From Flectonema sp. DT1601 (taxonomy: Eukaryota): a stretch of 64,000 nt of DNA. The DNA is taken from contig OZ025780.1 in NCBI GenBank assembly GCA_964019425.1, forward strand, positions 1,488,001 to 1,552,000, in the 5' to 3' direction. The notes beneath the pieces are model-generated. The model was not told the origin of the DNA. It searched no databases and saw only the letters and a program-made list of their open reading frames with translations. Shown in pieces: positions 21,595 to 61,941 of the stretch. Every line of letters begins with the position of its first letter. Positions within the stretch are counted from its first letter, which is position 1. The translations under genes were made by a program, and so were the position numbers.

Positions 21595-23144
21595 GTTCTA
21601 GTTTCTATTAGTATTTATTTATTTGTATTATTTTGTCGATATGTTTATGTCCGTCAGATCATAACGTTAATCAGATTAATTGTTAATTGTAAATAGTCTA
21701 AACCCCAATCCAAGTTCCCAAGGCTTGGCATAGATTTGAGTGACGCCTTACTGGCCTCCTCATCCTCTATTAGTGCCAGCAATGGTTTTTTTTCTTATAT
21801 TTTTCTTTTTCCTTTTACTCTAATATGAAATATTTTTGAACAAAATGTGATTATTAATTTTAAAAAAAAAAAAAAAAAACAATGAAAATAAATATATAAA
21901 AAAAAACATGCCTTGGGAATACAACCAAAGCCCCAACTATTCGGTCCTTTCTTTTTCCCTCTTGTTAATTGATCGCTCCACTCGTCGATCACCATAACCC
22001 TTGATCACCAAAACTTTGTGTGTGGAGCTTGTCGTTTTTGAAAACTTTGTGAGTGGAGCTTGTCATTTTTGAAAACTTTGTGTGTGGAACTTGTCGTTTG
22101 TGAAAACTTTGTGAGTGGAGCTGGTGGTTTTTGAAAACTTTGTGAGTGGAGCTTGTCGTTTTTTAAAACTTTGTGAGTTGAGCTTGTCATTTTTGAAAAC
22201 TTTGTGTGTGGAACTTGTCGTTTGTGAAAACTTTGTGAGTGGAGCTTGTCGTTTTTTAAAACTTTGTGTGTGGAGCTTGTCATTTTCTAAAAGTTTGTGT
22301 GTGGAGCTTGTTGTTTTTGAAAACTTTGTGTGCGGAGCTTATCATTTTTTAAAAACTTTGTGAGTGGAGCTGGTGGTTTTTGAAAACTTTGTGTGTGGAG
22401 CTTGTCGTTTTTGAAAACTTTGTGTGTGGAGCTTGTCGTTTTTGAAAACTTTGTGTGTGGAGCTCGTCGTTTTTGAAAACTTTGTGTGTGAAGCTTGTCG
22501 TTTTTGAAAACTTCGTGTGTGGAGCTTATCGTTTTTGAAAAAATTGTGTGTAGAGCTTGTCGTTTTTTTACAGTTTTTGTGTGGAGCTTGTCGTTTTTTA
22601 CAACTTGGTGTGGAGCTGGTGGTTTTTGAAAACTTTGTGTGTGAAGCTGGTGGTTTTTTTAAAGTTTTTGTGTGGTTGAGGCGATCGGCAGGGTGGAGGT
22701 GTTCACGATTTTTCACTTTGCTACACGAAAATTCACGATTTTTCACTTAATTTTTTGCTGCTTTTTGGTAGTGAAATCCTGTGAAAATGTGTGAAAATGT
22801 GTGAATTCTAGTGAAAAAAGTGAGTGATATCCAGATGGTACCGTTGGTGCTGGTGTGCTGTGCGATGTCAAACCTGTTCAGTTTGCCATACGTCATGTCA
22901 CTTTGACAACTAAATGGGCATCGCTTGTGCCCAGTGACCCATCACCCTTCCTGACCATCGCTTGTGGTGAGGTTCCGGACTTTGGACCGGCGCATCGCGT
23001 GTGCGGTGGGTTTAATCACTGAGGGGGCTCATTCTCGTTCACACTGTTCTGTTCTGTGGTGTCTTTCCATTACTCCTCCCATCTCTGCCAGGAGACAGCC
23101 TGACAACCCATATTGATATTGCTTGAGAGACAATGAGAGGTAAT

Positions 23145-24904
23145 TCATTGGGGTAGAAACAAGTGAGCGTAATCATTGGGTTCCAAGCTGATGATAATTT
23201 TTTTGGTTAAATAAATAAAAAATCCAAAGAGCAACTGTTGGCATTGCTCAACCTTGGGATTCTTGCGTGCCGGTTCTGCAGCCTTCTTTTTCTTCGCCTC
23301 TGCAGCCTTCTTCCTGGCTGCATCCCTTGCTTCCTCCTTCGCCTTCTTGGCAGCCGCCTTCTCCTTTCTTGCCTCCTCTTTTCGCTGAGCAGTTTTTTCT
23401 TGTGCAACTTTCCTGGCAGCAGCATTTTCTGCTGCTTTCGCTTGGGTCAGTGTGGCGGACTGCTGGGGCACCGGGAGGGAGAGGGGGTCACGCAACTTTA
23501 GCTTTGTGGGGAGCTCCAGCGCAAAGCATTCAACAACAGAGAAAATGAATGCCCCGCGCTGGGACTTGGTTGGGGGGTTAGGTAGGGATGGTGCGTCCAC
23601 CGGGATGATGCTGGCATCAGGCTTGGTGAGCATGGGGTCATCGGGGACATCACTCTTCAGCTTAGAGACCTGAATGTGGTTCACATGGGAGAGGGCGTGG
23701 TTGACCTGCCTATTGACTTCCAGCAGGCGGGCGTGGTGAGGGGAGACTGTGTCACCGCAATAGCAGCAACGAAAAATGCCCTTTCCCCCCAAGGGTTCCA
23801 GCATGTAGAACCATCTACCTGGAAGCTCGGTATCGAGCAATGCAAAAATCTTTTCCCAATAATCGAGGTGACAGTGGCCTGATCTTCTGGCCTGGCTGTC
23901 CTGAACTTTCTGCCGGTTAATCTTTTTGAAATGTTCTGTTGTGTTACCCTCAACAAGAAAACACAATGAAGCAGTTGAACGTGTGTCCTCTAACCAAGAC
24001 AACGCCCCTGCCAAGGCACCTGTAAAATCAACCCCCCTCTCAATGAGTAAGCAAACGACCGATTCCCACGTATGAAGAAGCACAGCGTTGCTATTGAACG
24101 GAGGAAGTCACTGAGGCCAAAGTACTTCGCAATCCAGGAGGCAATGCAATGAACTCGGTGTGTAGGCTCCGGGATGAGGCAGATATTGCCATCTTGGTCA
24201 AATAATTTAAACCCCCTGTATTCTGATCCACCCCGATCACTGAGCGCAGAGGTAATCGTGCAAGTTGACAGAGGTGGTGGTGCCGGATCAGTGATTAAGA
24301 TTCCGAGCTGCTGGAAGTGGTGCAGCGCACGTCGTAGTGTGTCACAGAATGATTGAGCTTGGTGGCTCTGTGTCAGTCTGCATGCAAGACTATAGCATGC
24401 AGTCGTAGCTGTAGCAGCAGTGATGTGTAGCGCTGACGAGTTTTCTGTCACAGATGTTGCGTCACTTACTAGGCAGAAGGTACTCTCCCGGTTGCGAATG
24501 AGAAACACACAATCCTGCACATACAACCACCGGATCATCTCTCTTCGTGCAGCCCAATAACTGACGGAGTCAAGACCATGAAGCTGGCGGGTAAACTGCG
24601 GAATGCGGCGCATGGCGATGTGCTGCAAGAGGATCCGGACAACTGTACTTGGTGGCTGTGGGCGGAGATGCAGGGTCCCAGCAACAGTGTATTGCGATAC
24701 ACCGTCAACCTCACCAATCTTCTCATCGCACCAGATCAGCATGCCATCTGTGCCAGCAACACGAGCCCTAACCTCCAAGTCATCTTCAACTTCTAGTCCC
24801 ATACCACCCAATACATCTAACAGCTTTGATCTGCTAGTCACATACAGCAAGATCTCTGCTGGCAAGGAATCGCGAAGTTGCACTGTTACTCTTACGAGAG
24901 CCAT
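23145..24904 (-). pseudogene. Frameshifted or deleted DDE-transposase-like ORFs (24904-23990 and 24083-23145)
   Basis: 'FCLVSDATS', 'ALSDRGGS' and 'PTHRVH' resemble the hAT D1, D2 and CxxH regions. The second frame has a CxxC...H...H zinc-finger-like motif and a Lys/Ala-rich tail. Confidence 0.5.
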
Positions 24905-25199
24905 GTGAATGCATTACCACAATAAACTTTAGAGAACGATAGGATTAACAAGCACCACCACTTCAACGATCACCACACATGCCTATCAACCCACCTGTGC
25001 TAGAATAGTTCAGCAACCACATGAAACTGTAACAAGAGCTGGATTAAAGAGAAGTAGTATTAACAATAAACTGTAGAGAACGATAGGATTAACAAGCACC
25101 GATGACAACTACGAAGCAGTGCAGTTCAGGCCCCCGCTGAGTAGTCTTTTTTACCAAACCACAAATCTCAATATCAAAATTCACGAAAATTCACGATTA

Positions 25200-25469
25200 C
25201 TGCAACTGGAAATATTACTGCGCGGAAAAAACCGCACTAATTTCCAAATCTGCAAAAAACCGCACTAATTTTTCCATGCAGTAATATTTCCACCGCACTA
25301 ATATTTCTGCTCAGAAGTGATTTTTTCTCCAGCTGCATTTTTCTGCTGGTGCCTTACACAGCAAAAAAGCAACCAAATTTTTTTCTACCACCAAGTGGAA
25401 AAAACCGCACTAATCTTTTCTCAAAAAAACCGCACTAATTTTTCTGCGCAGTAATATTTCCAGTTGCAG
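25200..25469. mobile_element. MITE (270 bp), TA TSD, nested in the hAT-like element
   Basis: TIRs CTGCAACTGGAAATATTACTGCGC / GCGCAGTAATATTTCCAGTTGCAG, flanked by TA on both sides; internal AAAAACCGCACTAAT repeats. Confidence 0.9.
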
Positions 25470-26255
25470 TATTCACGAAAATTCACGATTTTTCACCATG
25501 CTTATTGGCAGTGAATTTTCGTGAATTTTTGTGATAGGTAGAATTTATCGAAATCACAACTTGTGACAAACCGTGAAGGATCATGAAAATTCGTGAAACC
25601 TCTACCCCTGCCGATCGCCTCAGTGGTGCTTGTCGTTTTTTAAAAGTTTGTGTGTGAAGCTTGTCGTTTTTGAAAACTTTGCGAGTGGAGCTTGTTGTTT
25701 TTGAAAATTTTGTGTGCGGTGCTTGTCATTTTTGAAAACTTTGTGTGTGGAGCTTGTGGGTTTTCGAAACTTTATGTGTGGAGCTTGTCGTTTGTGAAAA
25801 CTTTGTAAGTGGAGCTGGTGGTTTTTAAAAACTTTGCGAGCGGAGCTGGTGGTTTTTAAAAAAATTGTGTGTGGAGCTTGTCGTTTGTGAGACCTTTGTA
25901 AGTGGAACTGGTGGTTATGAAACTTTGTGTGTGGAGCTTGTTGTTTGTGAAACTTTTGTAAGTGGAGCTGGTGGTTTTTGAAAACTTTGTGTGTGGAGCT
26001 TGTCGTTTGTGAAAACTTTGTGTGTGGAGCTTGTCGTTTGTGAAAACTTTGTGTGCGGTGCTTGTCATTTTTGAAAACTTTGTGTGTGGAGCTTGTCGTT
26101 TTTGAAAACTTTGTGTGTGGAGCTTATCGGTTTTTACAACTTGGTGCGGAGCTGGTGGTTTTTGAAAACTTTGTGTGTGGAGCTTGTCGTTTTTGAAAAC
26201 TTTGCGCGTGGAGCTTGTTGTTTTTGAAAACTTTGTGTGTAGAGCTTGTCGTTCT

Positions 26256-27901
26256 GTGACCAACCTTGACATTCTTTCTTTTCTCTCCTGTTGTGACAAA
26301 CACAAAATACACACACAGCTTACAGTGTGTTCTTTGTGTATGTTTTCTTCAGGTGTGAGTAGTTTTTTTGTTCTTGCTCTTCAGGGAGGGCCTTAGCCAA
26401 AAGCTAACAGTCCAAATCTCACCTGGAAATTCAACTCAGTCCTTGTCAGTTTTGGCATCAAACTTGTAATGGTTTAATCATTACAGGTTATTTACTGAAA
26501 TATTTGTTCTAAAAGTTGCTAAGTATTTCTCACTTAGAAATTTTTTATTTTTTTATTTTCAGCTTAATTAGCTACAAATTGTTTCTACTAAGTGTTTCTC
26601 ACTTAGATTTTTTTTTTGCTTTTCAGCTCCTTAAAAGCTGCTAAGTGTTTCTGCTAAGTGTTTCTCACTTAGAATTTTATTTTTATGTTCGTTTTCTATC
26701 CCTTCTCCTATCCCTTTTGTTCAAAATAAGCGGGAGGAAATTCTCTCATTCACGCTAAGATGCACTCTGAACTTTGATTTTTTGATCTGAGTGTGAGGGA
26801 ATGACCTGTTAGTGCATTGGGCATAGGCTGGGCTGCAGTTTAGATGTCTTAGGTGTTAATAGGGGGTTCCTCTTAGCATTTTTCTTTGTTCCCACCTTAT
26901 GATTTTCTTGAAGAAAAAAAATAGAAGTCATAATGGTGCTTCCCTCTGGAAGGGTTGTAAGCCATGGTGTCCAACTAGATTAATGGACAAGTCTGGGATA
27001 ATCCCTGCCAGAGGGGCGAGTATTCTACCATGGTTGAAATACTCTGGCAACTGATCTTCAATTTTATGTTGTTTGTTAGCTGCTGGTGTAATTAAATCAT
27101 GTGTTGATACTTGCATTTGTTTATTTGTTATCTTTTACTACAATAACGCTTGCCTATATCTTTTCTTTTTATTCCCTATCTGTTCTGATCTGTTACTTCA
27201 TTTGTCTTGTTTAACTTCAGTTATATGCATTTTACTTTTTATTGTTTCCCATCTACTTTTTATTTTCTATTAGTTCTGGTCAGAAACTCCTGGGCAGCAA
27301 GAAGGAAAGTAGTTAAGTACTTCTGGGTGTTTGGCATCACCCCCCATAGTGAGCAAGTACAACAGGTAGCATTGGTAGTCTGTTGATCCTGAGTGATCCC
27401 AGCTACAGTTTTGTTTTTCTTTCTTTTTTTTAGAAGAAGATCAGGACATCCAAGCACTGCTGGATAGTTGCTGAATGCAGGGCCTGCCTGTGGCATTATA
27501 ATAACAGGCTAAGTCATTTGTAGTTCATAGTTTACCTTTGATTTTATAACTTCACACAGGGTACTATGAACGATGAGAGATCCAGTGGGATCACTCAGGG
27601 TCTAGTAGAGACCACCAATGTTGTGCGTTGATAGGCAAGGTGACCAACCTTGACATTCTTTCTTTTCTCTCCTGTTGTGACAAACACAAAATACACACAC
27701 AGCTTACAGAATTTCGATAAAGTGGGAAGTAACGGACTGGGAGCTTTTGGCTCCTGCCCTATTCCCGATGTAAACTTTCTTTTAATTTTTATTTTTTTTT
27801 AACAGGCCCAAAGGGCGACAATGATGGTTGCTGACCAAGGAATAATATTCAAATGAATTTTCGTTTCAAAGAAACGAACAGAATTAAGAGAGAGGCAGAG
27901 G

Positions 27902-27932
<31 letters not shown>

Positions 27933-28274
27933 GAAAAAAAAAAATGAAGAGGAAATAATCAAACATGAAAAAAAAAAAAAAAAAAAATATATATATATAA
28001 ACAAAAAATGTTGTATGAAAAAGGAAAAAAAAGAAAAAAAAAAGACCAGAAAAGGAAAGAGAAAATGAAAAGGTATAATATTATTGTGGGGATATGAGGG
28101 ATAGCAGGGAGATGCTCTTTTTTTTTTTTTTTTTTTTTTTTTCTTATTTATTATTTAAAAAAGTGTTCTTTGTGTATGTTTTCTTCAGGTGTGAGTAGTT
28201 TTTTTGTTCTTGCTCTTCAGGGAGGGCCTTAGCCAAAAGCTAACAGTCCAAATCTCACCTGGAAATTCAACTCA
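26256..28274 (+). mobile_element. Element B copy 1: one 1384-bp unit plus ~180 bp repeat, interrupted by element A at 27709-28162
   Basis: GTGACCAACC at 26256 recurs at 27640; ends at GGAAATTCAACTCA; inserted in the 31-bp minisatellite with no TSD; non-coding. Confidence 0.85.
27709..28162 (-). mobile_element. Element A, short truncated copy (head only)
   Basis: Fixed end GAATTTCGATAAAGTGGG at 27709; the B sequence resumes at 28163 with a 1-2 bp loss. Confidence 0.9.
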
Positions 28275-29391
28275 CTTTACAGTTTTTGTGTGGAGCTTGT
28301 CGTTTTTTACAACTTGGTGTGGAGCTGGTGGTTTTTGAAAACTTTGTGTGTGGAGCTTGTCGTTTTTCGAAACTTTATGTGTGGAGCTTGTCGTTTTTGA
28401 AAACTTTGTAAGTCGAGCTGGTGGTTTTTAAAAACTTTGCGAGCGGAGCTTGTCGTTTTTTAAAAAAATTGTGTGTGGAGCTTGTCGTTTGTGAAAACTT
28501 TGTAAGTGGAGCTGGTGGTTTTTAAAAACTTTGCGAGCAGAGCTTGTCTTTGAAAACTTTGTGTGTGGAGCTTGTCGTTCTTGAAAACTTTGTGTGTGGA
28601 GCTTGTCGTTTTTGAAAACTTTGTGTGTGAAGCTTGTCGTTTTTAAAAACTTTGTGTGTGGAGCTTGTCGGTTTTTACAACTTTGTGAGTGGAGCTTGTC
28701 GTTTTTTAAAACTTTGTGTGTGAAGCTTGTCGTTTTTAAAAACTTCGTGTGGAGCTGGTGGTTTTTGAAAACTTTGTGTGCGGTGCTTGTCGTTTTTGAA
28801 AACTTTGCGAGTGGAGCTTGTCGTTTTTGAAAACTTTGTGTGTGGAGCTTGTCGTTTTTGAAAACTTTGTGTGGAGCTTGTCGTTTTTGAAAACTTTGTG
28901 TGTGGAGCTTGTTGTTTTTGAAAACTTTGTGTGTGAAGCTTGTCGTTTTTAAAAACTTTGTGTGTGGAGCTTGTCGTTTTTGAAAACATTGTGTGGAGCT
29001 TGTCGTTTTTGGAAACTTTGTGTGTGAAGCTTGTCGTTTTTAAAAACTTTGTGTGTGGAGCTTGTCGTTTTTGAAAACATTGTGTGTGGAGCTTGTCGTT
29101 TTTGGAAACTTTGTGTGTGAAGCTTGTCGTTTTTAAAAACTTTGTGTGTGGAGCTTGTCGTTTTTGAAAACTTTGCGTGTGGAGCTTGTCGTTTTTGAAA
29201 ACTTTGTGTGTAGAGCTTGTCGTTTTTTTACAGTTTTTGTGTGGAGCTTGTCGTTTTTTACAACTTGGTGTGGAGCTGGTGGTTTTTGAAAACTTTGTGT
29301 GTGGAGCTTGTTGTTTTTGAAAACTTTGTGTGTGGAGCTTGTTGTTTTTGAAAACTTTGTGTGTGGAGCTTGTGGTTTTTCGAAACTTTAT

Positions 29392-29775: not shown

Positions 29776-30064
29776 GAATTTCGATAAAGTGGGAAGTAAC
29801 GGACTGGGAGCTTTTGGCTCCTGCCCTATTCCCGATGTAAACTTTCTTTTTATTTTTATTTTTTTTTAACAGGCCCAAAGGGCGACAATGATGGTTGCTG
29901 ACCAAGGAATAATATTCAAATGAATTTTCGTTTCAAAGAAACGAACAGAATTAAGAGAGAGGCAGAGGAAAAAAAAAAAAAAAGAAAGAAAAGAAAAGAA
30001 AAGAAAAAAAAAAATGAAGAGGAAATAATCAAACATGAAAAAAAAAAAAAAAAAAAATATATAT

Positions 30065-30840
30065 CAGTCATTCCTTTTTTTTGCGAACAAATTTTAGACA
30101 TTGAAAAAGATTTTCAAAAAAAAATTGTAAAATTTTCGATCGAAGCGGCATTTTAATGCGCTGCATCATTGGGTTCATTTCCGTCCGAAATCGGGAGGTT
30201 GGCATCACATACTTGTCACCCGAATTGAGAAAAGAGATTTTGTGGTTTACTAAATCAGCTCAGCCGTGGACAAGTACCAAAACTAAAAATTAATCGAAGG
30301 GTCTAATTTTACACTGCCGGTCCAGCGGGATCCAGAGAAAAAATAATCGAGCAAAAATATATTAAAGAGTACTAAGCATGTGCCGGTGAGGCAGATTGTT
30401 ACTACCTGTCTTTTTGGACCTACTTTGATACTTAATGATCATTATCACCACCACAGATGCAACATTTTCCTTACATAATTGCTACTAGGGTTGATTTGTT
30501 AGTAAAAAGGTGCATATCTCTTGAGTGCGGGAGAAGGGGGAAAAAATAGTGAAAAAAAAAAATTAGGGGTGTTTTTTACTCAGATTTTCTCGATCTTTCC
30601 ATTCCAGGTCTGGGATTAATATTTATCATTGAGTAGTACCAAGGAAATGTTGCAAAGAGACGTTTATCTCTTTTTAGCAGCACTTACCATGTTTAAAAGT
30701 ATATCCCTATGCCTAATTTTACAGATCGCACCCTCCCCGATTCCAAAAAATAAAAAATCGAGCAAAAGTAACATATCGTGTAACCTTGCTCAGGCGGTGA
30801 GAAAATGGTGTTTTTTGTTCGCAAAAAAAAGGAATGACTG
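30065..30840. mobile_element. Non-autonomous TIR element X inserted in (TA)n
   Basis: TIRs CAGTCATTCCTTTTTTTTGCGAACAAA / TTTGTTCGCAAAAAAAAGGAATGACTG; the first ~370 bp are near-identical to 63223-63597. Confidence 0.9.
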
Positions 30841-30850
30841 ATATATATAT

Positions 30851-32574
30851 TAGTCATTCCAAAAATAACCGGCCGCGAAAACCAGTTTTGCTTCGAGCAG
30901 CCGTTGGTCAAAAATGCATCCATTTTCGAGATTTTTTACGAGGTGGAAAGGTTCGGCCCCAATCTCTCATTTTACGCGATGGGATTATTTTTTTTTCACT
31001 TTTTTTACTGACCGTTGGAACCCGACAGGTGCGTTATGGGTACTAAGAGAATGTCACTGTCGGCACGGAAAAGTTAATCCTGTTGCTGCATTTAATTTTT
31101 TTCTGGAAAAAAAAGGGAAATGCATCAGAGATTGGCATTTTTTCTCGTAACTACACTTATTATTCCCTTAAGCACCAGCTTAAACTTCTCTTGTCACATG
31201 TGCCACGAGATGCCAGCTGAGTATGTCGTCGCGGATTTGCCAGAACCGGTAATGAGGACGCTAGATCGGAGTGGGAGAAAAGGCAATCTGCATCGCATGC
31301 CTCCGGAAATACAAGCACTTCGGGAATACAAGAACCGACAAGGCGTGCTCCTCAGACAACTACAACTGCACCTCGCACACTAACGCGAAAAGATGGAATC
31401 CGAAGTTCAACAAGCTTCTTGAGCCACCCTGCCGTGACTTCGCGGTAGTCTTGAAATCCCCGGCGTATGCTCCTCTGCGCTCAATCTGCAACGCTTGCTA
31501 CCAGCGAGCAAAAAGGCTGACTAGTGATCCGCATTACGCATCCGTCAGTGTCCCTGCAGAGCCGATCAATCCGGAACCGCTCTCCGATATTTTTGAACGC
31601 GTGAAAGAATCAGTTCCTGCTGTCCGTTCTCAGTTTTTGAGACTCTGTCTCACGCTAAGCTACACTGATAGCCAGATTAATGCCCATGTCAGGGATTCTT
31701 CAATGCGTAAGCAGCTACAGAGGCTGGAACAGCACGATCCCTCCCAATCAGTAAAGCAGCGCAGCCAAGACAGAGATATCTGGAACTTCTGGATTTCCAA
31801 TGCACGCCCTGAGTCAAACCGCGTGGTCCTCAGCAAAGACTACATAACCGGCGAGACAAGTAAAGAGACAGTCCTCCATGTAAAAGAACCATACCTTGCC
31901 TTGGAGTGCCTTCTGCAGAACTCACACAGCTATCTCATATGCTCAGTTTTGTGACAAAAGGCCTAAATGTGGGTTGGTGCGAGCCAACTTTCACCTGCTA
32001 CCAACACTGAGAGTGAGTCTATTTCAGAAACAACTGAACCCACCTCAGATTCTGGTGAGTCTTCTACTGGCTCTTACTCTGTTAGTGAATCTAGTTCTAG
32101 TTCCAGTTTCAGATCGCTGTGTTCAACTAGTTCTATTATCGGTTCATTGCCGGTAGGAAAACGAAGAAAGCCAGCAGTAAAAGTTGCCAAAAAAGCTAAG
32201 CCTAATCAAAAATAAAAATAGGCTAAGTGTAGTGTAAGATGTACAAGGTACTGTTTTGCTTCGAGCAGCCTTTGTAACTGTTTCAGAGTAAAACATCCGA
32301 CCAGGTACGGCCGGATATAGAACCATATACCGATTTTTCATTTTAGCACCCGGGGCAGCCGATTAGACATCAACAGTTCCATTATTCAAAAATTTCACCA
32401 CACAAAAATGTCACAATTTTTTTGAATCTCAGCTGCATTTTTTTGAATCGCAGCGGGAATGAAATCGGCGGTGCAAAAGCGATTAAAATGGGTATTCGGT
32501 TTTAAGTTTTACTCCCTATTTTCACCCATGAAATACTGGAACCCTAAAATGGACGGTTATTTTTGGAATGACTA
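30851..32574 (+). mobile_element. TIR element Y (related termini), with internally deleted coding remnants 31271-32215
   Basis: TIRs TAGTCATTCCAAAAATAACCG / CGGTTATTTTTGGAATGACTA within (TA)n; Cys-motif ORF (CIAC, CNAC) followed by a Ser-rich frame. Confidence 0.85.
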
Positions 32575-33941
32575 ATATATATAAATAAAAAACGTTGTAT
32601 GAAAAAGGAAAAAAAAGAAAAAAAAAAGACCAGAAAAGGAAAGAGAAAATGAAAAGGTATAATATTATTGTGGGGATATGAGGGATAGCAGGGAGATGCT
32701 CTTTTTTTTTTTTTTTTTTTTTTTCTTATTTATTATTTAAAAAAAGGAAACAATCAGTTTAGCGTCTCGATCAGGACGGAAAATAGAAATTAATCGACAT
32801 AGTTGATCGATAGAAAAAAAAAACAATGATAACATTGTTTATTCATTTTTTTTTTTTTTTTTTTTTTTTTAAATCTTTTTAATTATTTTAAAGAAAAAAC
32901 AATCAGTTTAGCGTCTTGACCAGGACGGAAAATAGTAAGTAATCGACATAGTCGATCGATAAAAAAAAAACAATGATAACATTGTTTATTCCTTTTTTTT
33001 TTTTTTTATTCTTTTTATTTATTTTTAAAGAAAAAACAATCAGTTTAGCGTCCTGACCAGGACGGAAAATAGAAAGTAATCGACATAGTCGATCGATAAA
33101 AAAAAACAATGATAACATTGTTTATTCTTTTTTTTTTTTTTTATTTTAATTCTTTTTATTTATTTTTTAAAAAGAAAAAAAATGGAAAATAGAAATTAGT
33201 CAACAAAGTCGAACGATAAAAAAAAACACAATGATAACATTGTTTATTCTTTTTTTTTTTATTTTTTTTATATTCTTTTTTATTAATCTTGAAAAAAAAA
33301 ACAATCAGTTTAGCGTCTTGACCAGGACGGAAAATAGAAAGTAGTCGACATAGTCGATCGATAAAAAAAACAATGATAACATTGTTTATTCTTTTTTTTT
33401 TTATTTTAAATTCTTTTTATTTATTTTTTAAAGAAAAAAAACGGAAAATAGAAATTAGTCGACAAAGTCGAACGATAAAAAAAAACAATGATAACATTGT
33501 TTATTCTTTTTTTTGTATTTTTTTATATTCTTTTTTATTAATTTTGAAAAAAAAAACAATCAGTTTAGCGTCTTGACCAGGACGGAAAATAGAAAGTAAT
33601 CGACATAGTCGATCGATAAAAAAAACAATGATAACATTGTTTATTCTTTTTTTTTTTTTTTTTTTAAATTCTTTTTATTAATTTTTTAAAGAAAAAAAAC
33701 GGAAAATAGAAATTAGTCAACAAAGTCGAACGATAAAAAAAAACAATGATAACATTGTTTATTCTTTTTTTTTATTTTTTTTTTTTAATATTTTTTTTTT
33801 TTTTTATTTTGAAAAAAAAACAATCAGTTTAGCGTCTTGACCAGGACGGAAAATAGAAAGTGATCGACATAGTCGATCGATAAAAAAACAATGATAACAT
33901 TGTTTATTCTTTTTTTTTATTTTAAATTCTTTTTATTATTT

Positions 33942-33981
33942 ATATCTGTACTTTATTGTTTTACATATCTGTACTTTATTG
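33942..33981 (+). other. Two tandem spliced-leader relics (ATATCTGTACTTTATTG x2) at the LINE 5' end
   Basis: The 17-mer occurs at 33942-33958 and 33965-33981. TCTGTACTTTATTG is the 3' end of euglenozoan SL exons (e.g. Leishmania, Diplonema). It lies 20 nt upstream of the ORF1 ATG. Confidence 0.8.
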
Positions 33982-34001
33982 ATTTCCAATAATTAACAAC
34001 T

Positions 34002-36609
34002 ATGACATTGGATCCAGGCCTATTTGGCCTGATGCTGGAGAAGATGGTGGGCATGCTCGGTGAGATGCAGAAGGGTTTGAATGTAAAGGGGGTTACTAAA
34101 CGCAACGGGGGAGAGAAGTCATCGGTGGATTTATCGCCGATGAATGAAGAATGGACGAGGGTACGTGGTAAACGGCCCAAGGTAGTGAAGCGCAAGTCTG
34201 AGCCGGCTCAAGCGCTGAATTCGTTTAGTGGACTGAAGGAGGTCCGATGTGATGGGAAGGCAGCAACGAATTTCGAAAAGGTGGGAAGTAACGGACTGGG
34301 AGCTTTTGGCTCCTGCCCTATTCCCGATGTAAACTTTCTTTTTATTTTTTTTTTTTTTTTTAACAGGCCCAAAGGGCGACAATGATGGTTGCTGACCAAG
34401 GAATAATATTCAAATGAATTTTCGTTTCAAAGAAACGAACAGAATTAAGAGAGAGGTAGAGAAAAAAAAAAAAAAAAAAAAAAAAAAAAGAAAGAATAGA
34501 AAAAAAATATGAAGAGGAAATAATCAAACATGAAAAAAAAAAAAAAAAATAAAATATAAATAAAAAACGTTGTATGAAAAAGGAAAAAAAGAAAAAAAAA
34601 AGACCAGAAAAGGAAAGAGAAAATGAAAAGGTATAATATTATTGTGGGGATATGAGGATAGCAGGGAGATGCTCTTTTTTTTTTTTTTTTTTTCTTTTTT
34701 TTTTTATTTATTATTTAAAAAAAGAAACAATCAGTTTAGCGTCTCGATCAGGACGGAAAATAGAAATTAATCGACATAGTCGATCGATAGAAAAAAAACA
34801 ATGATAACATTGTTTATTCCTTTTTTTTTTTTTTTTTTTTTTATTCTTTTTATTTATTTTTAAAGAAAAAACAATCAGTTTAGCGTCCTGACCAGGACGG
34901 AAAATTGAAAGTGATCGACATAGTCGATCGATAGAAAAAAAACAATGATAACATTGTTTATTCCTTTTTTTTTTTTTTTTTTTTTTATTCTTTTTATTTA
35001 TTTTTAAAGAAAAAACAATCAGTTTAGCGTCCTGACCAGGACGGAAAATTGAAAGTGATCGACATAGTCGATCGATAGAAAAAAAACAATGATAACATTG
35101 TTTATTCTTTTTTTTTTTTTTTTTTTTTTTAAATCCTTTTAATTATTTTAAAGAAAAACAATCAATTTGCCGAATGTGCAAGAGAAGCGGTGGGACTGCC
35201 AACTCCGTGATGATGACTGGTCTGTTCCAGTAATTTCGATGTCAGGCGTGTTTAACACGTCGATTACGTGTGGTGTGTCACTGGGCACGGCCTCTGATGT
35301 AGATGCGATGATTAAACTCCGACCGGGAACAAACCTCTCGGTAATTTGCAAGAAAAACCCTGGGGGCGGTAAGAAGATACAGTTCCCGGCGGTGGTAAAC
35401 GACGGTGTACTGACACATCGGACCGGTTGGATTGTATCAACCGGGAAACCAGCTACCCTCTTCCGTGGAGACGCTCTGACTGCCGGTGACAATCGAGTGG
35501 TATTGTTCCACCACCACGCGCTCCACTCCAACGACAAGGTGCCTTCGCCTAGTGAGCTATGCAAGAAGGCCTCCGACTTCTACACGGCAGTTACGAACCT
35601 GCCCATCGAGCCGCACCTCTTGTGGCCTGCCAACAAGAAGGAATCAGACCCTCATGTTAAGTCTGTGAACATGAGGGTGCCAGCAGACGCTGTTGACGCC
35701 TTGAGAAGGGCAAGTGGGAGTGGTGGGTACTTCTTATCAGTACCGAATTTCGCAGACACAGCACCGTGCAGGACGTCAATCCAGCTCACGGTGGATTTTA
35801 AGTTAGCCTCATCGCTAGCCGGTGAACTCCGGTTACCTCTGAGGTTCTACCGCCACTCACGCAAACTGGGGGTTGTGTGTCTGAAGACCGACGAAGATTA
35901 CGTTCGATCGAAGCTGGGTGAGAATGCACTGCCGCCTCCACCTGAAGGCCTCAAGTTCTGTTTGAGGAGCCGAGCCATTGATGCGATGAGTTCGCTGGAA
36001 GTAGTGCAGGTCTGTGCTCACCAAGGGTGGGAGATTAACGTCGTTGCTCGGTACAGGAGCAGAAAGGAGCTTCCTAAGATGATTGTAGTGGCCAAGGAGA
36101 AACCCAAGAGTAACTTCATCATTCTTCGTGATGACATGATCACAATCAAAGAGGTGGGCCTCGGCAAGCAGAATCCCGATAAGATGGACCTGGACGAGTT
36201 TCCTCACCTCTGTCAACCTAACGCTGCGCCATCTGTTGGAATTGATTTATCGCCACCGCCTGTTTCTCAGCAAAATCAGCAATATCTGCAAACGCTTCAA
36301 TCGAACAAACAGCAGCTGCCCATACCGCCTTCGCAGTACAACTGTCAACAATCCGACATTTCTAAATTGGTATCGCAGGTTACTGAACTAACGGCTGCTG
36401 TGAAGAGTCTACGGCAGGACCTTGCTGAAGAGAGGGATGCGAATAGATGTCTCCGAAAGGAGATTGAGTCCCTAAATAATGAAAAAGGATCGGGATCTCA
36501 GAGGCTGACCGTCTCAAGTAGGCAACGAGCTAACTCTGTTGCTGCTACTAAGTCTGAAATGGCTGACCGTCTTGATCGGAATGAGAAACGGGACTACTCG
36601 CGGAATTAG
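34002..36609 (+). CDS. LINE ORF1 (570 aa after removing insert 34274-35168)
   Basis: The join ACG AAT TT|G CCG AAT gives ...GKAATNLPNVQEKRW...; C-terminal Q-rich and coiled-coil region; AATTT is duplicated at the junctions. Confidence 0.8.
34268..35163 (-). mobile_element. Element A copy inserted in LINE ORF1
   Basis: Fixed end GAATTTCGAAAAGGTGGG; truncated after ~3.5 satellite units; AATTT on both sides. Confidence 0.9.
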
Positions 36610-37655
36610 CAACCACTTCCAATTGACTGTTTATTGGGAAAGACTCCGTCCTTGGAGTACTATTATTCTGTGAGTGGACTTCTGGAACTCTATCGTAGTG
36701 GTTTTCCGAGACACCCTGGTCCGATGTCTGATATATCGCCGCTGAGAATACTTAGTTGGAATGCGCTGTCGATGGTAAAACACCATGAATCTCTGGTACG
36801 GCTCGTTCAATCGGCTAATCCTGACATCCTCCATATTCAAGAAACTTGGCTCACTGATCTGGTTCTTGATGAACAGATTCAACTTCAGGGATACACCTGC
36901 TTCCGTAGGGACAGAATCAGATTAAATTTTAATGGCAAGGCAAAACGCGGTGGTGGACTGGCGACTTTCTGCAGGGACTCCCTTGTGGTCAGGAGATTAT
37001 CGGATCCAACTGAGCGTAATTCACCGTTTGAGGTGTTAGTTGTCGAGGTAATGACAGACATCGGTCCGATTACGTCTTCTAATGTGTATATTCCGCAGAA
37101 TTTCTTGGTGCCGACCTCTGTTGTCTTCGGTGAAGTAGTATGTGGAGATTTCAATGCTCACCATCGGTCGTGGTCGAGGGTGGTTCCAACAAGTAGTTCG
37201 TCGCGAGGTCTGTCAGTTCTTGATTGGATTAACGGAAATGGACTGCAGATTTGCGATGTTCCGCTGGATACAAGACCTTGTTCAGAGACTTCACCTGATT
37301 TGTTTCTTGTCGACAGCAATATTGAGGTGTTGAATGTACACCAGTACAGTGCGTCTGATAGTGGGTCCGACCACACGCCAATAGTGGTTGACATCTCGGT
37401 ATATCCGGGCTGCTCACAAATTACCACTCCCGCTCACCGCCGCTGGTTCTACAACAAGTTCGAGGATGAGCACTGGGTCTCATTTCGCGTGCTAACTGAA
37501 GCGCGAGCTCATCGTTTGGAGGGGATGTCTAATGTGAACAAGCTTGGATGTGAATTTATTAGTCTAATTGAGGAGGTGGCTATTGAAACGCTTCCAAACA
37601 AATGGTTCAAATCTGATACGAAGCGGAGGAAGAAATTACCTAAGCTGAGACCTAA
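36610..37655 (+). CDS. LINE ORF2 part 1: apurinic-like (APE) endonuclease
   Basis: LRILSWNA, PDILHIQETWL, RRDR...GGGLA, NVYIP, GDFNAHH, PDLF and SDHTPI motifs; first Met at 36724. Confidence 0.95.
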
Positions 37656-37830
37656 ATTTCGAAAAGGTGGGAAGTAACGGACTGGGAGCTTTTGGCTCCT
37701 GCCCTATTCCCGATGTAAACTTTCTTTTTATTTTTTTTTTTTTTTTAACAGGCCCAAAGGGCGACAATGATGGTTGCTGACCAAGGAATAATATTCAAAT
37801 GAATTTTCGTTTCAAAGAAACGAACAGAAT

Positions 37831-44554: not shown

Positions 44555-44609
44555 CTTTTTTTTTTTTTAAAGAAAAAACAATCAGTTTAGCGTCTTGACC
44601 AGGACGGAA

Positions 44610-45114
44610 TCTTATTGCGAAAATTGGTTCTTCAAAAGGAGCGGCCTGGGCCTTCGACAAGCTGCGGGAACTCAGGGGCGGTCGGTCCAATTCAAAGGAA
44701 GTTCCGGTTGCTGCTGATGATTTACTCGACCATTTCTTTGGTGATTCAAAATCCTCACCGTTATTAGTTCCTGATTCGAAGCCTGCTGATTATGATGACT
44801 CAAGCTGTGGTTCTTTTTCGATTCATGAGTTATACACGGTACTGAAGTCATTGACTCCCTCCCACGGGTCTGGTTTAGATTCTGTTTCTAATAATATGCT
44901 GCTTAACTTGGGTCCCCGTATGCTCCTACTATTGCTTAGACTCGCCTCGCTATCTTTCAGGAGGGGTATCTTTCCCTCTTGCATGAAAAAGGCCAAGGTG
45001 ATTATAATTCCGAAGGGAGGGGATCGTGACCCGCTTCTTCCGTCTTCTTACAGACCAATCTCTTTGACGTCAATTGTTTCGAAGTGCTTGGAGTCGCTTG
45101 TGGGTAATCGAATT
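44610..45114 (+). CDS. LINE ORF2 part 2: linker and RT domains 0-2
   Basis: FSIHELYTVLKSL, GSGLDSV, KKAKVIIIPKGG and SYRPISLTSIVSKCLE motifs; open from 44608. Confidence 0.92.
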
Positions 45115-45300
45115 TCGATAAAGTGGGAAGTAACGGACTGGGAGCTTTTGGCTCCTGCCCTATTCCCGATGTAAACTTTCTTTTTATTTTTATTTTTTTT
45201 TAACAGGCCCAAAGGGCGACAATGATGGTTGCTGACCAAGGAATAATATTCAAATGAATTTTCGTTTCAAAGAAACGAACAGAATTAAGAGAGAGGCAGA

Positions 45301-45334
<34 letters not shown>

Positions 45335-45510
45335 GAGAAAAAAAATGAAGAGGAAATAATCAAACATGAAAAAAAAAAAAAAAAAAAAATATATAAATAA
45401 AAAACGTTGTATGAAAAAGGAAAAAAAGAAAAGAAAAAAAGACCAGAAAAGGAAAGAGAAAATGAAAAGGTATAATATTATTGTGGGGATATGAGGGATA
45501 GCAGGGAGAT

Positions 45511-45543
<33 letters not shown>

Positions 45544-46594
45544 CTTATTTATTATTTAAAAAAAGGAAACAATCAGTTTAGCGTCTCGATCAGGACGGAA
45601 AATAGAAATTAATCGACATAGTTGATCGATAGAAAAAAAAACAATGATAACATTGTTTATTCATTTTTTTTTTTTTTTTTTTTTTTAAATCTTTTTAATT
45701 ATTTTAAAGAAAAAACAATCAGTTTAGCGTCTTGACCAGGACGGAAAATAATAAGTAATCGACATAGTCGATCGATAAAAAAAAAACAATGATAACATTG
45801 TTTATTCCTTTTTTTTTTTTTTTTTTATTCTTTTTATTTATTTTTAAAGAAAAACAATCAGTTTAGCGTCCTGACCAGGACGGAAAATAGAAAGTAATCG
45901 ACATAGTCGATCGATAAAAAAAACAATGATAACATTGTTTATTCTTTTTTTTTTTTTTTATTTTAATTCTTTTTTTTTATTTTTAAAAAGAAAAAAAAGG
46001 GAAATAGAAATTAGTCAACAAAGTCGAACGATAAAAAAAAACAATGATAACATTGTTTATTCTTTTTTTTTTTATTTTTTTTATATTCTTTTTTATTAAT
46101 TTTGAAAAAAAAACAATCAGTTTAGCGTCTTGACCAGGACGGAAAATAGAAAGTAATCGACATAGTCGATCGATAAAAAAAACAATGATAACATTGTTTA
46201 TTCTTTTTTTTTTTTATTTTAAATTCTTTTTATTTATTTTTTGAAGAAAAAAAACGGAAAATAGAAATTAGTCGACAAAGTCGAACGATAAAAAAAAACA
46301 ATGATAACATTGTTTATTCTTTTTTTTGTATTTTTTTATATTCTTTTTTATTAATTTTGAAAAAAAAACAATCAGTTTAGCGTCTTGACCAGGACGGAAA
46401 ATAGAAAGTAATCGACATAGTCGATCGATAAAAAAAACAATGATAACATTGTTTATTCTTTTTTTTGTATTTTTTTATATTCTTTTTTATTAATTTTGAA
46501 AAAAAAACAATCAGTTTAGCGTCTTGACCAGGACGGAAAATAGAAAGTGATCGACATAGTCGATCGGTAAAAAAACAATGATAACATTGTATAT

Positions 46595-46627
<33 letters not shown>

Positions 46628-49600: not shown

Positions 49601-50076
49601 ATAAATAAATAACGGTCAAGCTGAGCTGATCTTGTTTTTATTAAAATAAGGGGAGCGGGAGGGATGGAAGGAATAAAGGAAAAAAAAGAAAAGGTCGATC
49701 AATTGGATCTGGTCGTCGAGAAGAAGAAGACAATTATTTTAAAGGTCGATCGGCATAGCCGATCGTTGAGAAAAATAACCAGATATAAATACAATCAGTT
49801 TAAATAAAAAAAAAAAAAAAATAAATAAATAAAAAAAGTTTAACGATCAAGCTGAGCTGATCTTGTTTTTATTAAATTAAGGGGAGCGGGAGGGATGGAA
49901 GGAATAAAGGAAAAAAAAAGAAAAGGTCGATCAATTGGATCTGATCGTCGAGAAGAAGAAAACAATTATTTTTAAAAAAAATGATCGGTATAGCCGATCG
50001 TTGAGAAAAGAACAGATATAAATACAATCGGTTTTGGTGATCGACGAGTGGAGCGATCACTTGACAAGAAGGATGT
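45110..50076 (-). mobile_element. Long element A copy (~5 kb) in the RT domain: head, ~3.4-kb satellite, unique distal region
   Basis: Fixed end at 45110; satellite ~45568-48930; distal region with a GGTATCTC array (49239-49333), a ~190-bp duplication (49610-49800 / 49840-50030) and the leader motif 50031-50066. Confidence 0.88.
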
Positions 50077-51117
50077 GAACATTTGTTGGAGGGGAAGTTG
50101 GACCCTAGGCAGTCTGGTTTTACGCCGGGCAGAAATGTAGAAGAGAACATCTCGCTATTGGTGGATGCGGCTTCCGGTGTGCAGAAACTCTATGATGGTT
50201 ATGGAGCGATCATCCTCTTTGATATCTCTGGGGCATTCGATAACGTGGATCATCAAATACTCGTTGATAGATTGGTAGCTGTCCTGCCGGTTCCGTATGT
50301 TAAATGGCTTGCGAACTATCTTTCGGATAGAAATGTGAGTCTGTCTCTGGGATTAGATAATGGATCCAGATCCTGTACGAAGGGGGTCCCTCAAGGATCT
50401 GTGCTTGGTCCTCTCTTATTTCGGATCTTTGTCGACTCCCTGCCAGGTCTAATAAGTGGTGCTGATCTCAGTGTTCTGTTTGCTGATGATCTTGCCGTGT
50501 TTCTGCAACATGAGAAGATAGATGGGATCGAAGCGAAGGGCCTGTCCGTCATCTCTCAGATAGAAGGTTGGATGGTTTCCTCTAAGATGGAGGTAAACAT
50601 GAAGAAAACAGAGTACGTTGCCTTTGGTAAGCGCATCTCTGGCTCCGATGTCGAATGGAGTAGGGCACCTCGCTTTTACTTCCCATCGTCTGTTGAAGAG
50701 TTACACATGCCTACAGGCTCTGCCGGTGCTCTCACTGAGAAGCTTTCTCCATCAATAGGGGCAGTTCTGGATCTCGCTGATGCTTTGCTGCCACTGGAGA
50801 TTGATGGTTACCCGGTGACGAGACGTTCTGACTTTGTCCGACTGGCCTGTGCTCGTAAGAGCAAGGAGTTCAGGCTGAAAGCAGCGATCCCACTGAAACG
50901 TGTCAGGAGCGCGAAATACCTAGGAGTTATCATTGATGACTCGCTATGCTTCGACGAACAGGTGGATAAGATTGTGAAAACAATTCGAGCTGGTTGCGGT
51001 TTACTCAAAATGTTCTCTGCCTATGAGGTCAAAACTGATACCCTTCGTCAGCTTGTAGATGGTGCAGTGTTATCTCGAGCGTTCTTTGGACTAAAGGCTT
51101 TTTCTCCCTTTTTGTCT
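50077..51117 (+). CDS. LINE ORF2 part 3: reverse transcriptase core
   Basis: QSGF, FDISGAFDNVDH, GVPQGSVLGPLLF, FADD and KYLGV motifs. Confidence 0.96.
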
Positions 51118-51907
51118 CTTTCCTTTTCTGGTCTTTTTTTTTTCTTTTTTTCCTTTTTCATACAACGTTTTTTATTTACTGTAAAGGGAAATATTCTCGC
51201 GGGGAAATATTCTTGCGGGGAAATATTCTTGCGGGGAAATATTCTCGCGGATTTGGAGATTTTTTTTCAAACTCGCGGGTTTTTCCCCACAAGAATATTT
51301 CCCTGCCACAGAGGATTTTTGTGAAAGCCAGCCAGTTGATCAAGAATCTAAGAAATCTTTGTGCTTCCATCAAGTGTCAGGTAGAACAAAGCATTATTCT
51401 CCAAGCAAACACAATAAAAAACTACCATACTGCACAATAAAAATAATTTTTACTGAAACTTTCCTTCATAGCACACATATTTTCTTCACAAAAAAGAACA
51501 AAAAAATGGCTAGAAAAAAAGTATGCTTGCAGGGAAATATTCCCGCGGGGAAATATTCTCGCGGATTCAGAAAAAATAATAAAAACTCGTGGGTTTTTCC
51601 CCACAAGAATATTTCCCTTTACAGTATATTTTTTTTTTTTTTTTTTTTTTCATGTTTGATTATTTCCTCTTCATATTTTTTTTCTATTCTTTCTTTTTTT
51701 TTTTTTTTTTTTTTTCTCTACCTCTCTCTTAATTCTGTTCGTTTCTTTGAAACGAAAATTCATTTGAATATTATTCCTTGGTCAGCAACCATCATTGTCG
51801 CCCTTTGGGCCTGTTAAAAAAAAAAAAAAATAAAAAGAAAGTTTACATCGGGAATAGGGCAGGAGCCAAAAGCTCCCAGTCCGTTACTTCCCACCTTTTC
51901 GAAATTC
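51115..51907 (+). mobile_element. Short element A copy between RT and RNase H, carrying a MITE
   Basis: Fixed end ...TTTTCGAAATTC at 51907; TCT at both junctions. Confidence 0.9.
51179..51624. mobile_element. MITE (446 bp), TA TSD
   Basis: TIRs CTGTAAAGGGAAATATTCT / AGAATATTTCCCTTTACAG, flanked by TA; internal GCGGGGAAATATTCT repeats; termini resemble the 25200 MITE. Confidence 0.92.
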
Positions 51908-51908
51908 T

Positions 51909-53480
51909 GATGTTCAGATCAAGCGGATCGAAGCGTGCTTGCGTCATCTACGGATAAGACTCACTGGTTGCTCGTTCTCGACGAAGGATGTGGTGCTCAC
52001 AGTTGAGTCGCGAATTCCACCGCTGCAACAAACGATATCTAGGCTCCTTGCCCTAGTTCATGAAGATCTGCTAAGGCGACAACCTGAATGTCCTTCATGG
52101 AGGCTGTTTAACGGTGGTGAGAAGAAGAGACCATGGCAGACTAGAGTTGAAGCCTGTTCCTCGGAATTTTCTCTGTCAGAGCTTAGGTCCCAGAAAGTTC
52201 TGCCACATCAGTATCCTCCGTGGTCGAAGCATCCTCCTTTGGTTGTAAACACGTCCTGCGGTTATGACAAGACTGACACACCTGAGGAGAAGTATGCTGT
52301 GGCGATGACGACCCTCAATGAACTGCCCCCGTGTGTTGCTGAAGTCTACACTGATGCCTCGGTCTTCCATGACGAGGAGCGGGGATTATTATGTGGGGGG
52401 GCTGCTGTTCTGCTAGTTGCTGGCAAGGTCATTGAGAAGCTCTCCAAGTTCCAACCGTCCCTCACGATTTACAATGCAGAACAACTAGCACTATTGTCAG
52501 CCCTTGAACTACTAGAGGAGAATCTTCATGTTGTTTCGCATGGCGTGATTCATATTTTCAGTGATTGTCAGTCGGCGCTTGCCTCCCTGCATAGGGGGCC
52601 ATCCAGGCAGTCATCATCAACAAATCGTGAGATTTTTGAACGCTCAGTGCTTCTTGATAGGCCGTTGATTTTCCAGCATGTCCCATCTCATTGTGGCATT
52701 GCAGGGAATGAACTGGCTGATACACTGGCAAAGAAGGCAGCCTTGCAATCAGTTGACCCTGAACTAACTCCGTATGATTTCAGGATGGCTCAATGTTGTA
52801 TTAAGAAACAAGCAAATTGGAAGGCTATGGGTACTGTGGACTCTTCGCATTCATACAGCAAAGCGACTCTAGGATCTGGCCCTCAACGTTTCCTTCCCTG
52901 TCTCACTAGGGGCCAGGAGGTAGAATTGTCTCGTCTGCGAACCTCTCACCACAGGCTTGTAAAGCTGCCGAGGGTCACTGCGGGCTTTAAATGTTGTCTG
53001 TTCTGTGGCTTTCAGGATACCTCAACTGAGCATCTGCTGCTTGAATGCGTTGAGACCAGGGAATTAGTAAAGCAAACCATGAGATTTCCGACACCTGATG
53101 ATGAGCTATCTCTGGATATGTTCTTTCGAACCGAATGGCAGCCTTTCACGTTGTTATTGATCAGCAAGCTTGATAATCATCTTAAAGAGTTATCTGACAA
53201 TCCGTTGTTGTTGAAGTTTCCGCTTCAGGGTATTTTTGTGAGGAAGAAACTAATCACACACATCGAAAGGAAGACAAGTTTCTCGCTACTGGGTTCTGAT
53301 GTGAAGGAATATGTTATGGAACTTATTGATAACGCTTATAAAGCTACCGATTTAAATGTTGTTATTGACGACCTTTCTATGGTTAATGTGCTGGTCAATC
53401 CTAGCTGGTCGGAATCCAAGCTTTCTAAGTTCCTCTCTCACCTAAGTCGCCTCCTGCGAAGTAATCCCCGAGGTAGATAA
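51909..53480 (+). CDS. LINE ORF2 part 4: connection, RNase H, CCHC zinc knuckle, C-terminal extension
   Basis: VYTDAS, YNAEQLAL, IFSDCQSAL, HVPSHCGIAGNELADTLAK; LSRLRTSH; CLFCG....STEHLLLEC. Confidence 0.95.
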   Translation, partial: DVQIKRIEACLRHLRIRLTGCSFSTKDVVLTVESRIPPLQQTISRLLALVHEDLLRRQPECPSWRLFNGGEKKRPWQTRVEACSSEFSLSELRSQKVLPHQYPPWSKHPPLVVNTSCGYDKTDTPEEKYAVAMTTLNELPPCVAEVYTDASVFHDEERGLLCGGAAVLLVAGKVIEKLSKFQPSLTIYNAEQLALLSALELLEENLHVVSHGVIHIFSDCQSALASLHRGPSRQSSSTNREIFERSVLLDRPLIFQHVPSHCGIAGNELADTLAKKAALQSVDPELTPYDFRMAQCCIKKQANWKAMGTVDSSHSYSKATLGSGPQRFLPCLTRGQEVELSRLRTSHHRLVKLPRVTAGFKCCLFCGFQDTSTEHLLLECVETRELVKQTMRFPTPDDELSLDMFFRTEWQPFTLLLISKLDNHLKELSDNPLLLKFPLQGIFVRKKLITHIERKTSFSLLGSDVKEYVMELIDNAYKATDLNVVIDDLSMVNVLVNPSWSESKLSKFLSHLSRLLRSNPRGR

Positions 53481-53583
53481 TGAACGTCTCTTTCCTCTAG
53501 TGTAATTTCTTATTTTATTTATTAGAATTCCTCAATTCTTCCGTCATGGTCATGACATTCTTTTTCGTTTCTCTAATGCACAA

Positions 53584-54240: not shown

Positions 54241-54280
54241 AGACGCTAAACTGATTGTTTTTTCTTTAAAAAAAAAAAAG

Positions 54281-54314
<34 letters not shown>

Positions 54315-55088: not shown

Positions 55089-55127
<39 letters not shown>

Positions 55128-57417: not shown

Positions 57418-57451
<34 letters not shown>

Positions 57452-61545: not shown

Positions 61546-61820
61546 ATCATTTCTCTTTCTTATCATTACTTTATTTCTTATTTTCTGATCTAATGTGGCG
61601 TGTTCTCCCTCTCTTTGGCGAAAATTGGCGTTATCAGCCGTCTCTAACACTGTCTGCTCGCGTGGACGGTGGGTTTAGGTAGTCATTTGTTCCAGGTTAT
61701 TCTACGTCTCTTATCGTCTGTGAGAGTCTCACGGTTGCTGGTAGCGATATAACTGTTACTCTGTGAGCTTTTCCTGGCTTTTGGCTTCCTAGGCTTCGTA
61801 AATAAATAAATAAATAAATA
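61546..61820 (+). other. Distal LINE 3' UTR and (TAAA)5 tail
   Basis: Unique sequence ending in TAAA repeats (61799-61820), after which the satellite unit interrupted at 33941 resumes. Confidence 0.8.
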
Positions 61821-61903
61821 TTTATTTTTAAAGAAAAAAAACGGAAAATAGAAATTAGTCAACAAAGTCGAACGATAAAAAAAACAATGATAACATTGTT
61901 TAT

Positions 61904-61941
<38 letters not shown>

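Follow-up and report, generated by a model that had tools for sequence, protein, structure and literature searches.

Every long interspersed nuclear element (LINE) must regenerate its 5' end. The LINE described here lies in a 64,000-nucleotide stretch from Flectonema sp. DT1601 (assembly GCA_964019425.1, contig OZ025780.1, positions 1,488,001 to 1,552,000 of the forward strand; "the window" in the following) and carries at its 5' end two tandem copies of a sequence that resembles the 3' end of the euglenozoan spliced leader (SL). In trypanosomes, the 5' end of ingi and L1Tc is renewed by an internal promoter together with a ribozyme, and trans-splicing is avoided (PMC1874656). The RNAs of both elements are reported to be unspliced, which has been called a general trait of trypanosomatid LINEs (PMC1874656, PMC5814959). 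In the relict-SL retrogenes of dinoflagellates and Perkinsus, tandem SL copies mark, in genomic DNA, the 5' end of a reverse-transcribed RNA, and the inner one is clipped at an AG within the SL, a process termed 'recycling of processed cDNAs' (Slamovits and Keeling 2008, as cited in PMC3229502; PMC5585692).

Like the relict-SL retrogenes, the window LINE is a genomic retro-copy whose 5' end coincides with SL-like sequence, and the inner clip at an SL AG that is seen in those genes is predicted for the window copy. Unlike them, being host-gene passengers whose mobilising enzyme is stated to be unknown, the passenger here is an autonomous LINE, and it resides in Euglenozoa. With the INGI elements (Tbingi, L1Tc) it shares AP endonuclease (APE), reverse transcriptase (RT) and RNase H (PMC12278014), a likeness by domain layout and not by tree. 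Ahead of the APE stands a 2A-like motif, a likeness of sequence motif only: relative to the L1Tc-type consensus DxExNPGP (PMC5814959) it is a degenerate HPGP without the DxE part in the window, and NPGP in the relatives P0021 and P0056. Unlike INGI, and judged without a direct comparison to a Pr77 sequence, the element has no 77-nt Pr77 promoter/hepatitis delta virus (HDV) ribozyme at its 5' end, which consists of 40 nt of SL-like sequence and a 20-nt untranslated region (UTR); with 60 nt before the first open reading frame (ORF1) there is no room for the 77-nt signature. It further differs from INGI in having a separate ORF1 of 570 aa and in ending in (TAAA)n, where INGI has poly(A). The occurrence of SL sequence beside a non-LTR element (one without long terminal repeats, LTRs) is shared with CRE/SLACS/CZAR and NeSL, but those elements carry a restriction-like endonuclease (RLE) and insert in SL RNA genes, whereas the window LINE is of the APE type, lies in a tandem array and has an SL-free 3' junction.

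No report of SL-headed LINEs in Euglenozoa was found in the literature searched, which excluded most subscription papers. The feature itself is real. We consider it probable (roughly 0.62) that two rounds of SL trans-splicing and retrotransposition left the stacked copies at the 5' end of this LINE.

The 5' end and its resemblance to a spliced leader

The 120 nt to the left of 33942 and the 120 nt to the right of 61820 match adjoining stretches of a single complete array unit (48068-48188 and 48182-48300, respectively). Since the flanks rejoin this unit in register, it was an array unit that received the LINE, whose 5' end is the outer SL-like copy, give or take a few low-complexity bases. The two matches overlap by about 7 low-complexity bases, which is what can be seen of a target-site duplication; its exact extent is not resolvable. 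At the putative 3' end of the element a (TAAA)5 tail is found at about 61799-61819, a simple-repeat tail, LTR-free, as in APE-type LINEs.

The doublet consists of the 17-mer ATATCTGTACTTTATTG at 33942-33958 and again at 33965-33981, with TTTTAC in between and thus a unit spacing of 23 nt; the ATG of ORF1 (34002-34004) follows the inner copy after exactly 20 nt (33982-34001). The intact ORF1 proteins P0001, P0002, P0006 and P0008 (567-573 aa) share the initial residues of the window ORF1, which identifies the ATG at 34002 as the true ORF1 start. Allowing up to 3 mismatches, the 17-mer has exactly two matches across the 64-kb window, compared to a mean of 0.26 in shuffled sequences, 2 of 100 of which reach two matches. 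Its 14-nt core has no further match in the window at up to 2 mismatches. The doublet region is about 79% AT, and no AG occurs from 33873 to 34015. Folding of the LINE 5' end is unremarkable (z -1.81 and -0.33), and the search for an Rfam ribozyme yielded none at the gathering score in the window and only noise at the LINE 5' end.

Of the 14 euglenozoan consensus SLs in the table of PMC3795323, 7 have a 3' end identical to the last 14 nt of the copies, as does an eighth if an ambiguity code is taken into account. Both copies stop exactly at the last G of the SL. According to an order-2 model of the window, the 14-nt core is expected at 5.2e-9 per position, that is 6.6e-4 times per window, and at a distance of up to 50 nt from a given 5' end its chance is 2.6e-7. 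Altogether, 14 of the 17 repeated bases agree with known SLs; the bases before the core read ATA, versus GTT after CA in the SLs. The TACA before the core corresponds to the TACA of the SL, shifted by one base. In the canonical 39-nt SL the AGs end at nt 17 and 23, leaving relics of 22 or 16 nt. The inner unit measures 23 nt, against the 22 nt expected after the first SL AG, and this AG itself is predicted. An SL variant without the second AG would give a relic of about 22-23 nt, in agreement with the inner unit. An SL match was also sought in seven text supplements of PMC10161547 and none was found; Additional file 1, on SL RNA and repeats, was possibly outside this set.

The original prediction, made from the letters of the window alone, had proposed that a 17-mer, TTTTAC, a second 17-mer and 20 nt precede an ORF1 ATG, that this doublet caps a LINE, that the copies resemble the SL 3' end, and, by implication, that the host is an SL-using euglenozoan. 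All elements of the doublet were found as described, the flanks place the outer copy at the exact 5' end, and the core coincides with the SL ends of PMC3795323. The identity of the element as a LINE is borne out by matches to PF03372, PF00078 and PF00075 and by intact protein relatives, and the placing of the host agrees with its genes (see below). The prediction had also raised the possibility that the duplicated 17-mer occurs in unrelated contexts; within the window, the one doublet is its sole occurrence. That the element is scattered in pieces, and that its flanks fix the 5' end, goes beyond what had been predicted.

Spliced-leader doublets at other loci

When metagenome contigs were screened for pairs of SL ends no more than 25 nt apart, 89 loci emerged; neither IMG/VR nor 596 Gb of prokaryote genomes contained the doublet pattern (0 matches each). 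Seven of the 89 loci (L003, L014, L020, L024, L040, L059 and L087) combine a bodonid-type SL with a 16-nt relic behind it that begins exactly after the last SL AG. L087 even has three stacked copies, the extra one being a 22-nt relic that begins after the first SL AG. In all five of these seven loci with upstream DNA, the outer SL is 5'-truncated (start at about nt 6-12) and stands behind unrelated sequence, so that these five are not SL genes. The cap 4 of the SL carries modified nucleotides, and the truncation fits a reverse transcription that halts near them. L014 and L059 run into RT frames (PF00078, E 1.4e-9 and 1.6e-6), and L059 sits directly behind the 3' part of another RT element. AG-clipped loci of this kind may represent a cleaner case than the window copy. 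A search of nine loci against Rfam gave nothing at E <= 0.5. About 80 contigs with a partial SL are mentioned in PMC7859406.

Most of the other doublets, 79 of the 89, were set aside as probable library or assembly concatemers: they are contig ends of many genes, with a diplonemid-type SL, and are not of the post-AG kind, since their inner copies begin at SL nt 3, 6, 7 or 19 or form one irregular unit. L007 was rejected as an SL doublet because it is a local tandem repeat. L035 (289-328) and L088 contain AGAACGA in units of 26 and 36 nt, respectively, with no CAGTT upstream; these could be further SL variants or ordinary tandem repeats.

Among 66 pattern matches in viral contigs, searched by alignment, no relatives were found. 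A full 39-nt SL is carried by the giant-virus contigs L091, L092, L094 and L096 (one 238-kb contig), L093 and L095. It is diplonemid-type, or bodonid-type in L095, with an AT-rich promoter-like motif a short way upstream and an ATG 32-89 nt downstream, which suggests that these contigs derive from giant viruses of diplonemids. The SL of L093 lacks the first AG, showing that SL variants exist.

Proposed cycle and alternative explanations

In Diplonema papillatum a 39-nt SL is present on essentially all mRNAs, and genes lie in co-transcribed clusters (PMC10161547). In such a polycistronic genome, a donor copy of the LINE would be read through by the host polymerase, SL trans-splicing would excise and cap the LINE RNA, and translation would start from the ATG 20 nt behind the leader. 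Target-primed reverse transcription would then proceed from the (TAAA)n tail and enter the SL up to wherever it stops. A copy that retains the SL-internal AG behind a T-rich flank would bring its own acceptor, and each further round would put a new SL ahead of a 22-23-nt relic. The host SL required for this is predicted to end in the 23-nt unit, with an AG just before it and the usual second AG gone. Since everything upstream of the acceptor would be lost in every round, an upstream promoter or a 5' ribozyme would not be heritable; a promoter inside ORF1 could still exist. Of the new SL the window copy itself retained just 17 nt, and no AG precedes its codon 5, which probably made it a dead end already before the later insertions split it.

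The original prediction had gone further, in holding that the element has neither promoter nor ribozyme of its own and that a variant host SL and a second cycle lie behind the doublet. The ribozyme part is consistent with the lack of an Rfam match, whereas the absence of a promoter is something we infer. The LINE, its exact 5' end, the euglenozoan host and the core matching the SL end are supported; the variant SL is a prediction, and the second cycle is probable.

It is possible, though we put it at somewhat under even odds, that a promoter-less, SL-driven cycle is general in free-living euglenozoans for LINEs of several clades (the present APE-RNase H family in a diplonemid, other RT elements in bodonid-type DNA), which would bring the splice acceptor for the following round within the SL that they copied, with the number of relics counting generations and with a diplonemid host SL that lacks CAGTT and the second AG. 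If the LINE does rely on SL trans-splicing, the same phylum would harbour, with the same domain layout, a solution to the 5'-end problem opposite to that of ingi and L1Tc, a promoter being unneeded in a polycistronic genome. Relict-SL recycling would extend from the alveolates to the Euglenozoa, with a hint at the type of enzyme that copies SL-capped RNA. Stacked relics would serve as a generation counter, and only copies with the SL AG retained could act as donors. Should the host SL indeed lack CAGTT, this would be new with respect to euglenozoan SL conservation and to SL-based sorting of transcripts.

Several observations weigh against two rounds of trans-splicing and retrotransposition. 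The stretch CAGTTTCTGTAC is kept by all 14 euglenozoan consensus SLs (PMC3795323), by the prokinetoplastid SL and by the diplonemid-type SLs found at other loci, and both window copies lack it. The variant 15-mer was not found in the literature searched, and the variant 19-mer has a single match in IMG/VR, which lies inside a phage coding frame and is taken as chance. The UTR of 20 nt is short compared to 79 diplonemid-type cDNA ends (median 40, 10th percentile 30, minimum 10), which come from a different, GC-rich species. The LINE 5' end is read from one copy only, and the two 23-nt units from 33942 are identical at 21 of 23 positions, as a tandem duplication would give. As for the seven AG-clipped metagenome loci, these are other retroelements in other hosts, and they support the mechanism rather than this copy: they attest to the cycle in Euglenozoa, but not to its having been run twice by the window LINE. 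Their library type is not on record. The RT match of L059 (28.4 bits) is just under the Pfam cut-off, its frame being cut by the locus end, the long frames of L020, L024 and L040 gave no significant Pfam match, and L003 and L087 have too little DNA downstream.

The identity of the units makes it a real rival that a single old SL relic, in which GTT had drifted to TA, was doubled, by tandem duplication of 23 nt or by a template jump of the RT at the 5' end, in a host with a canonical SL. The CAGTT stretch, invariant across every SL compared, also speaks for this explanation. However, the two mismatches both fall in the 6 nt outside the 17-mer, and one of them is the first base after the SL-terminal G, a placement with a p of about 0.06 if random substitutions hit a duplicate; a match at 4 of 6 spacer positions is expected by chance with p 0.11-0.13 at this composition. 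Moreover, the family is young (94.7-99.7% protein identity), for which two substitutions in 23 nt are many, and both the length of the unit and its TACA match are in keeping with a post-AG relic. Placement of the mismatches and youth of the family thus favour two SL additions, moderately so because the variant SL is a prediction, and we regard duplication of a single relic as unlikely while taking it seriously. The doublet could also owe its likeness to chance, as an SL-unrelated tandem duplication of 23 AT-rich nucleotides in a 5' UTR. Three of the 17 bases do not match known SLs and the region is rich in AT, but the 14-mer is rare under the model given above, most of all near a given 5' end, and the core ends on the last base of the SL, in a euglenozoan; chance is therefore very improbable.

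Giant viruses offer a different precedent, since some seem to imitate host mRNA. Accordingly, the LINE might carry a hard-wired leader mimic behind an internal promoter and produce an unspliced RNA that passes for a host message. All six giant-virus matches have the full 39-nt diplonemid- or bodonid-type SL before ORFs, and trypanosome LINEs do use internal promoters (PMC1874656). The viral SLs are full-length and canonical, however, whereas in the window the outer copy is cut short at the insertion junction, and the 5' half of the SL is missing from the inner one; no promoter was identified either, and we consider a mimic improbable. Finally, the SL-like bases could be target DNA or a target-site duplication left by insertion into an SL gene in the manner of CRE/SLACS/CZAR, given that CRE-clade elements insert in kinetoplastid SL genes and that SLACS-like RTs are present in Diplonema (PMC12278014, PMC5814959, PMC10161547). 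This explanation, the least probable of those considered, was rejected on the flanks, which are tandem array on both sides, with no SL 5' half upstream and no SL exon or intron after the 3' tail; in addition, the element has an APE and an RNase H and not an RLE.

Pieces of the element, host and neighbourhood

The LINE comprises 6294 nt in six pieces over 28 kb, split by later insertions (Table 1). The coding pieces belong to one element, because intact proteins span them in order. The alignment to P0002 covers 34002-34283 (94.7%) and 35152-36606 (96.9%), whereas P0020, an ORF2 protein, aligns in order to four places, the short first of which (77% over 57 residues) enters an insertion. A contig from run X1 joins 37653 directly to the sequence at 44608. 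In a Pfam scan of 21 frames, the AP endonuclease was found at 36634-37674, the reverse transcriptase at 50083-51321 and the RNase H at 51939-53477, while the remainder of ORF1 matched no family above the cut-off. The order APE-RT-RNase H is thus that of one element, and the APE is N-terminal to the RT and contiguous with it in the intact P0042. Complete ORF2 copies of 1349 aa are present among the database proteins (P0042 and P0043). The ORF1 and ORF2 clusters comprise 8 and 25 members, respectively, and identity to three related families (P0021-P0023) is 42-43%. ORF2 continues in frame after the ORF1 stop (36607-36740), with about 40 open codons and the degenerate 2A-like motif before the first Met; judging from the sequence, this arrangement could reflect stop read-through with ribosome skipping, or re-initiation.

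Table 1. Features of the LINE and of its target site (positions in the window)
Feature	Positions	Strand	Basis
Left target flank: T-rich unit of tandem-array element	33822..33941	+	Alignment to array unit
Outer SL-like copy, 5'-truncated, 17 nt; LINE 5' end	33942..33958	+	Flank continuity; last 14 nt = euglenozoan SL end
Inner SL-like relic, 23 nt, without internal AG	33959..33981	+	Compare 22-nt post-AG relic of L087
5' UTR, 20 nt, AT-rich	33982..34001	+	No Rfam match above noise; folding z -0.33 (33982-34101)
ORF1 start, first 90 codons	34002..34273	+	94.7% to P0002 residues 1-94
ORF1 rest, coiled-coil-like C-terminus	35169..36609	+	96.9% to P0002 residues 86-573
ORF2 start: degenerate 2A-like HPGP and AP endonuclease	36610..37654	+	PF03372 E 1.8e-14
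ORF2 piece between APE and RT core	44608..45111	+	99.4% to P0020 residues 44-211
ORF2 reverse transcriptase	50074..51097	+	PF00078 E 1.6e-25; 99.7% to P0020 residues 212-559
ORF2 RNase H and C-terminal Cys/His motif, up to stop	51906..53480	+	PF00075 E 1.9e-10; 97.6% to P0020 residues 551-1082
Putative 3' UTR, first piece	53481..53578	+	Unique in window; inverted array elements next
3' UTR, last piece with (TAAA)5, putatively of the LINE	61546..61820	+	Unique in window; tail, then array unit in register
Right target flank: same array unit continued	61821..61940	+	Alignment to array unit

Most breaks in the LINE are insertions of a tandem-array element beginning with AATTTCG. This element has a fixed AATTTCG end, about 420 bp of unique sequence and poly-T/poly-A units of 111-147 bp, and it is nested throughout 27709-63232 (e.g. 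34268-35168, 45110-50030, 53579-56249 and 56250-61545). Nine copies of its unique part occur on both strands, nested in one another and in the LINE. No coding capacity was seen in it, and the depth of the array is high in all four sequencing runs considered here (shares 0.06-0.33), among which there is no RNA run. Elements with terminal inverted repeats are found in TA runs at 30057-30845, 30846-32577, 63215-63596 and about 51180-51625; they resemble miniature inverted-repeat transposable elements (MITEs) or DNA transposons, and one of them has a 227-aa frame without a Pfam match.

When the four runs were aligned to the LINE, 33974-34247 remained uncovered, which has no bearing on expression or on the SL. 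On the host genes at 8600-21700 the same runs yielded, besides short matches to repeats, a single piece of 267 nt, and no loose end resembled an SL; this too has no bearing on expression or on the SL.

The host is a euglenozoan and likely a diplonemid, to judge from its genes. The best named matches of an IQ/TPR gene (5.4-11.7 kb) are those in Lotmaria and Leptomonas (44%), closer ones reaching 51-52%, and the gene contains a GT-AG intron. Kinetoplastids have next to no introns and diplonemids have many (PMC8061765, PMC7859406), so that the euglenozoan matches and the intron together make a diplonemid likely. The gene belongs to a unidirectional, intron-bearing host cluster on the minus strand (2943-20393), which encodes a TMEM43-like protein, the IQ/TPR protein, a Cys-rich frame of 780 aa and a histidine phosphatase. 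A 31-bp satellite occupies 22010-29389.

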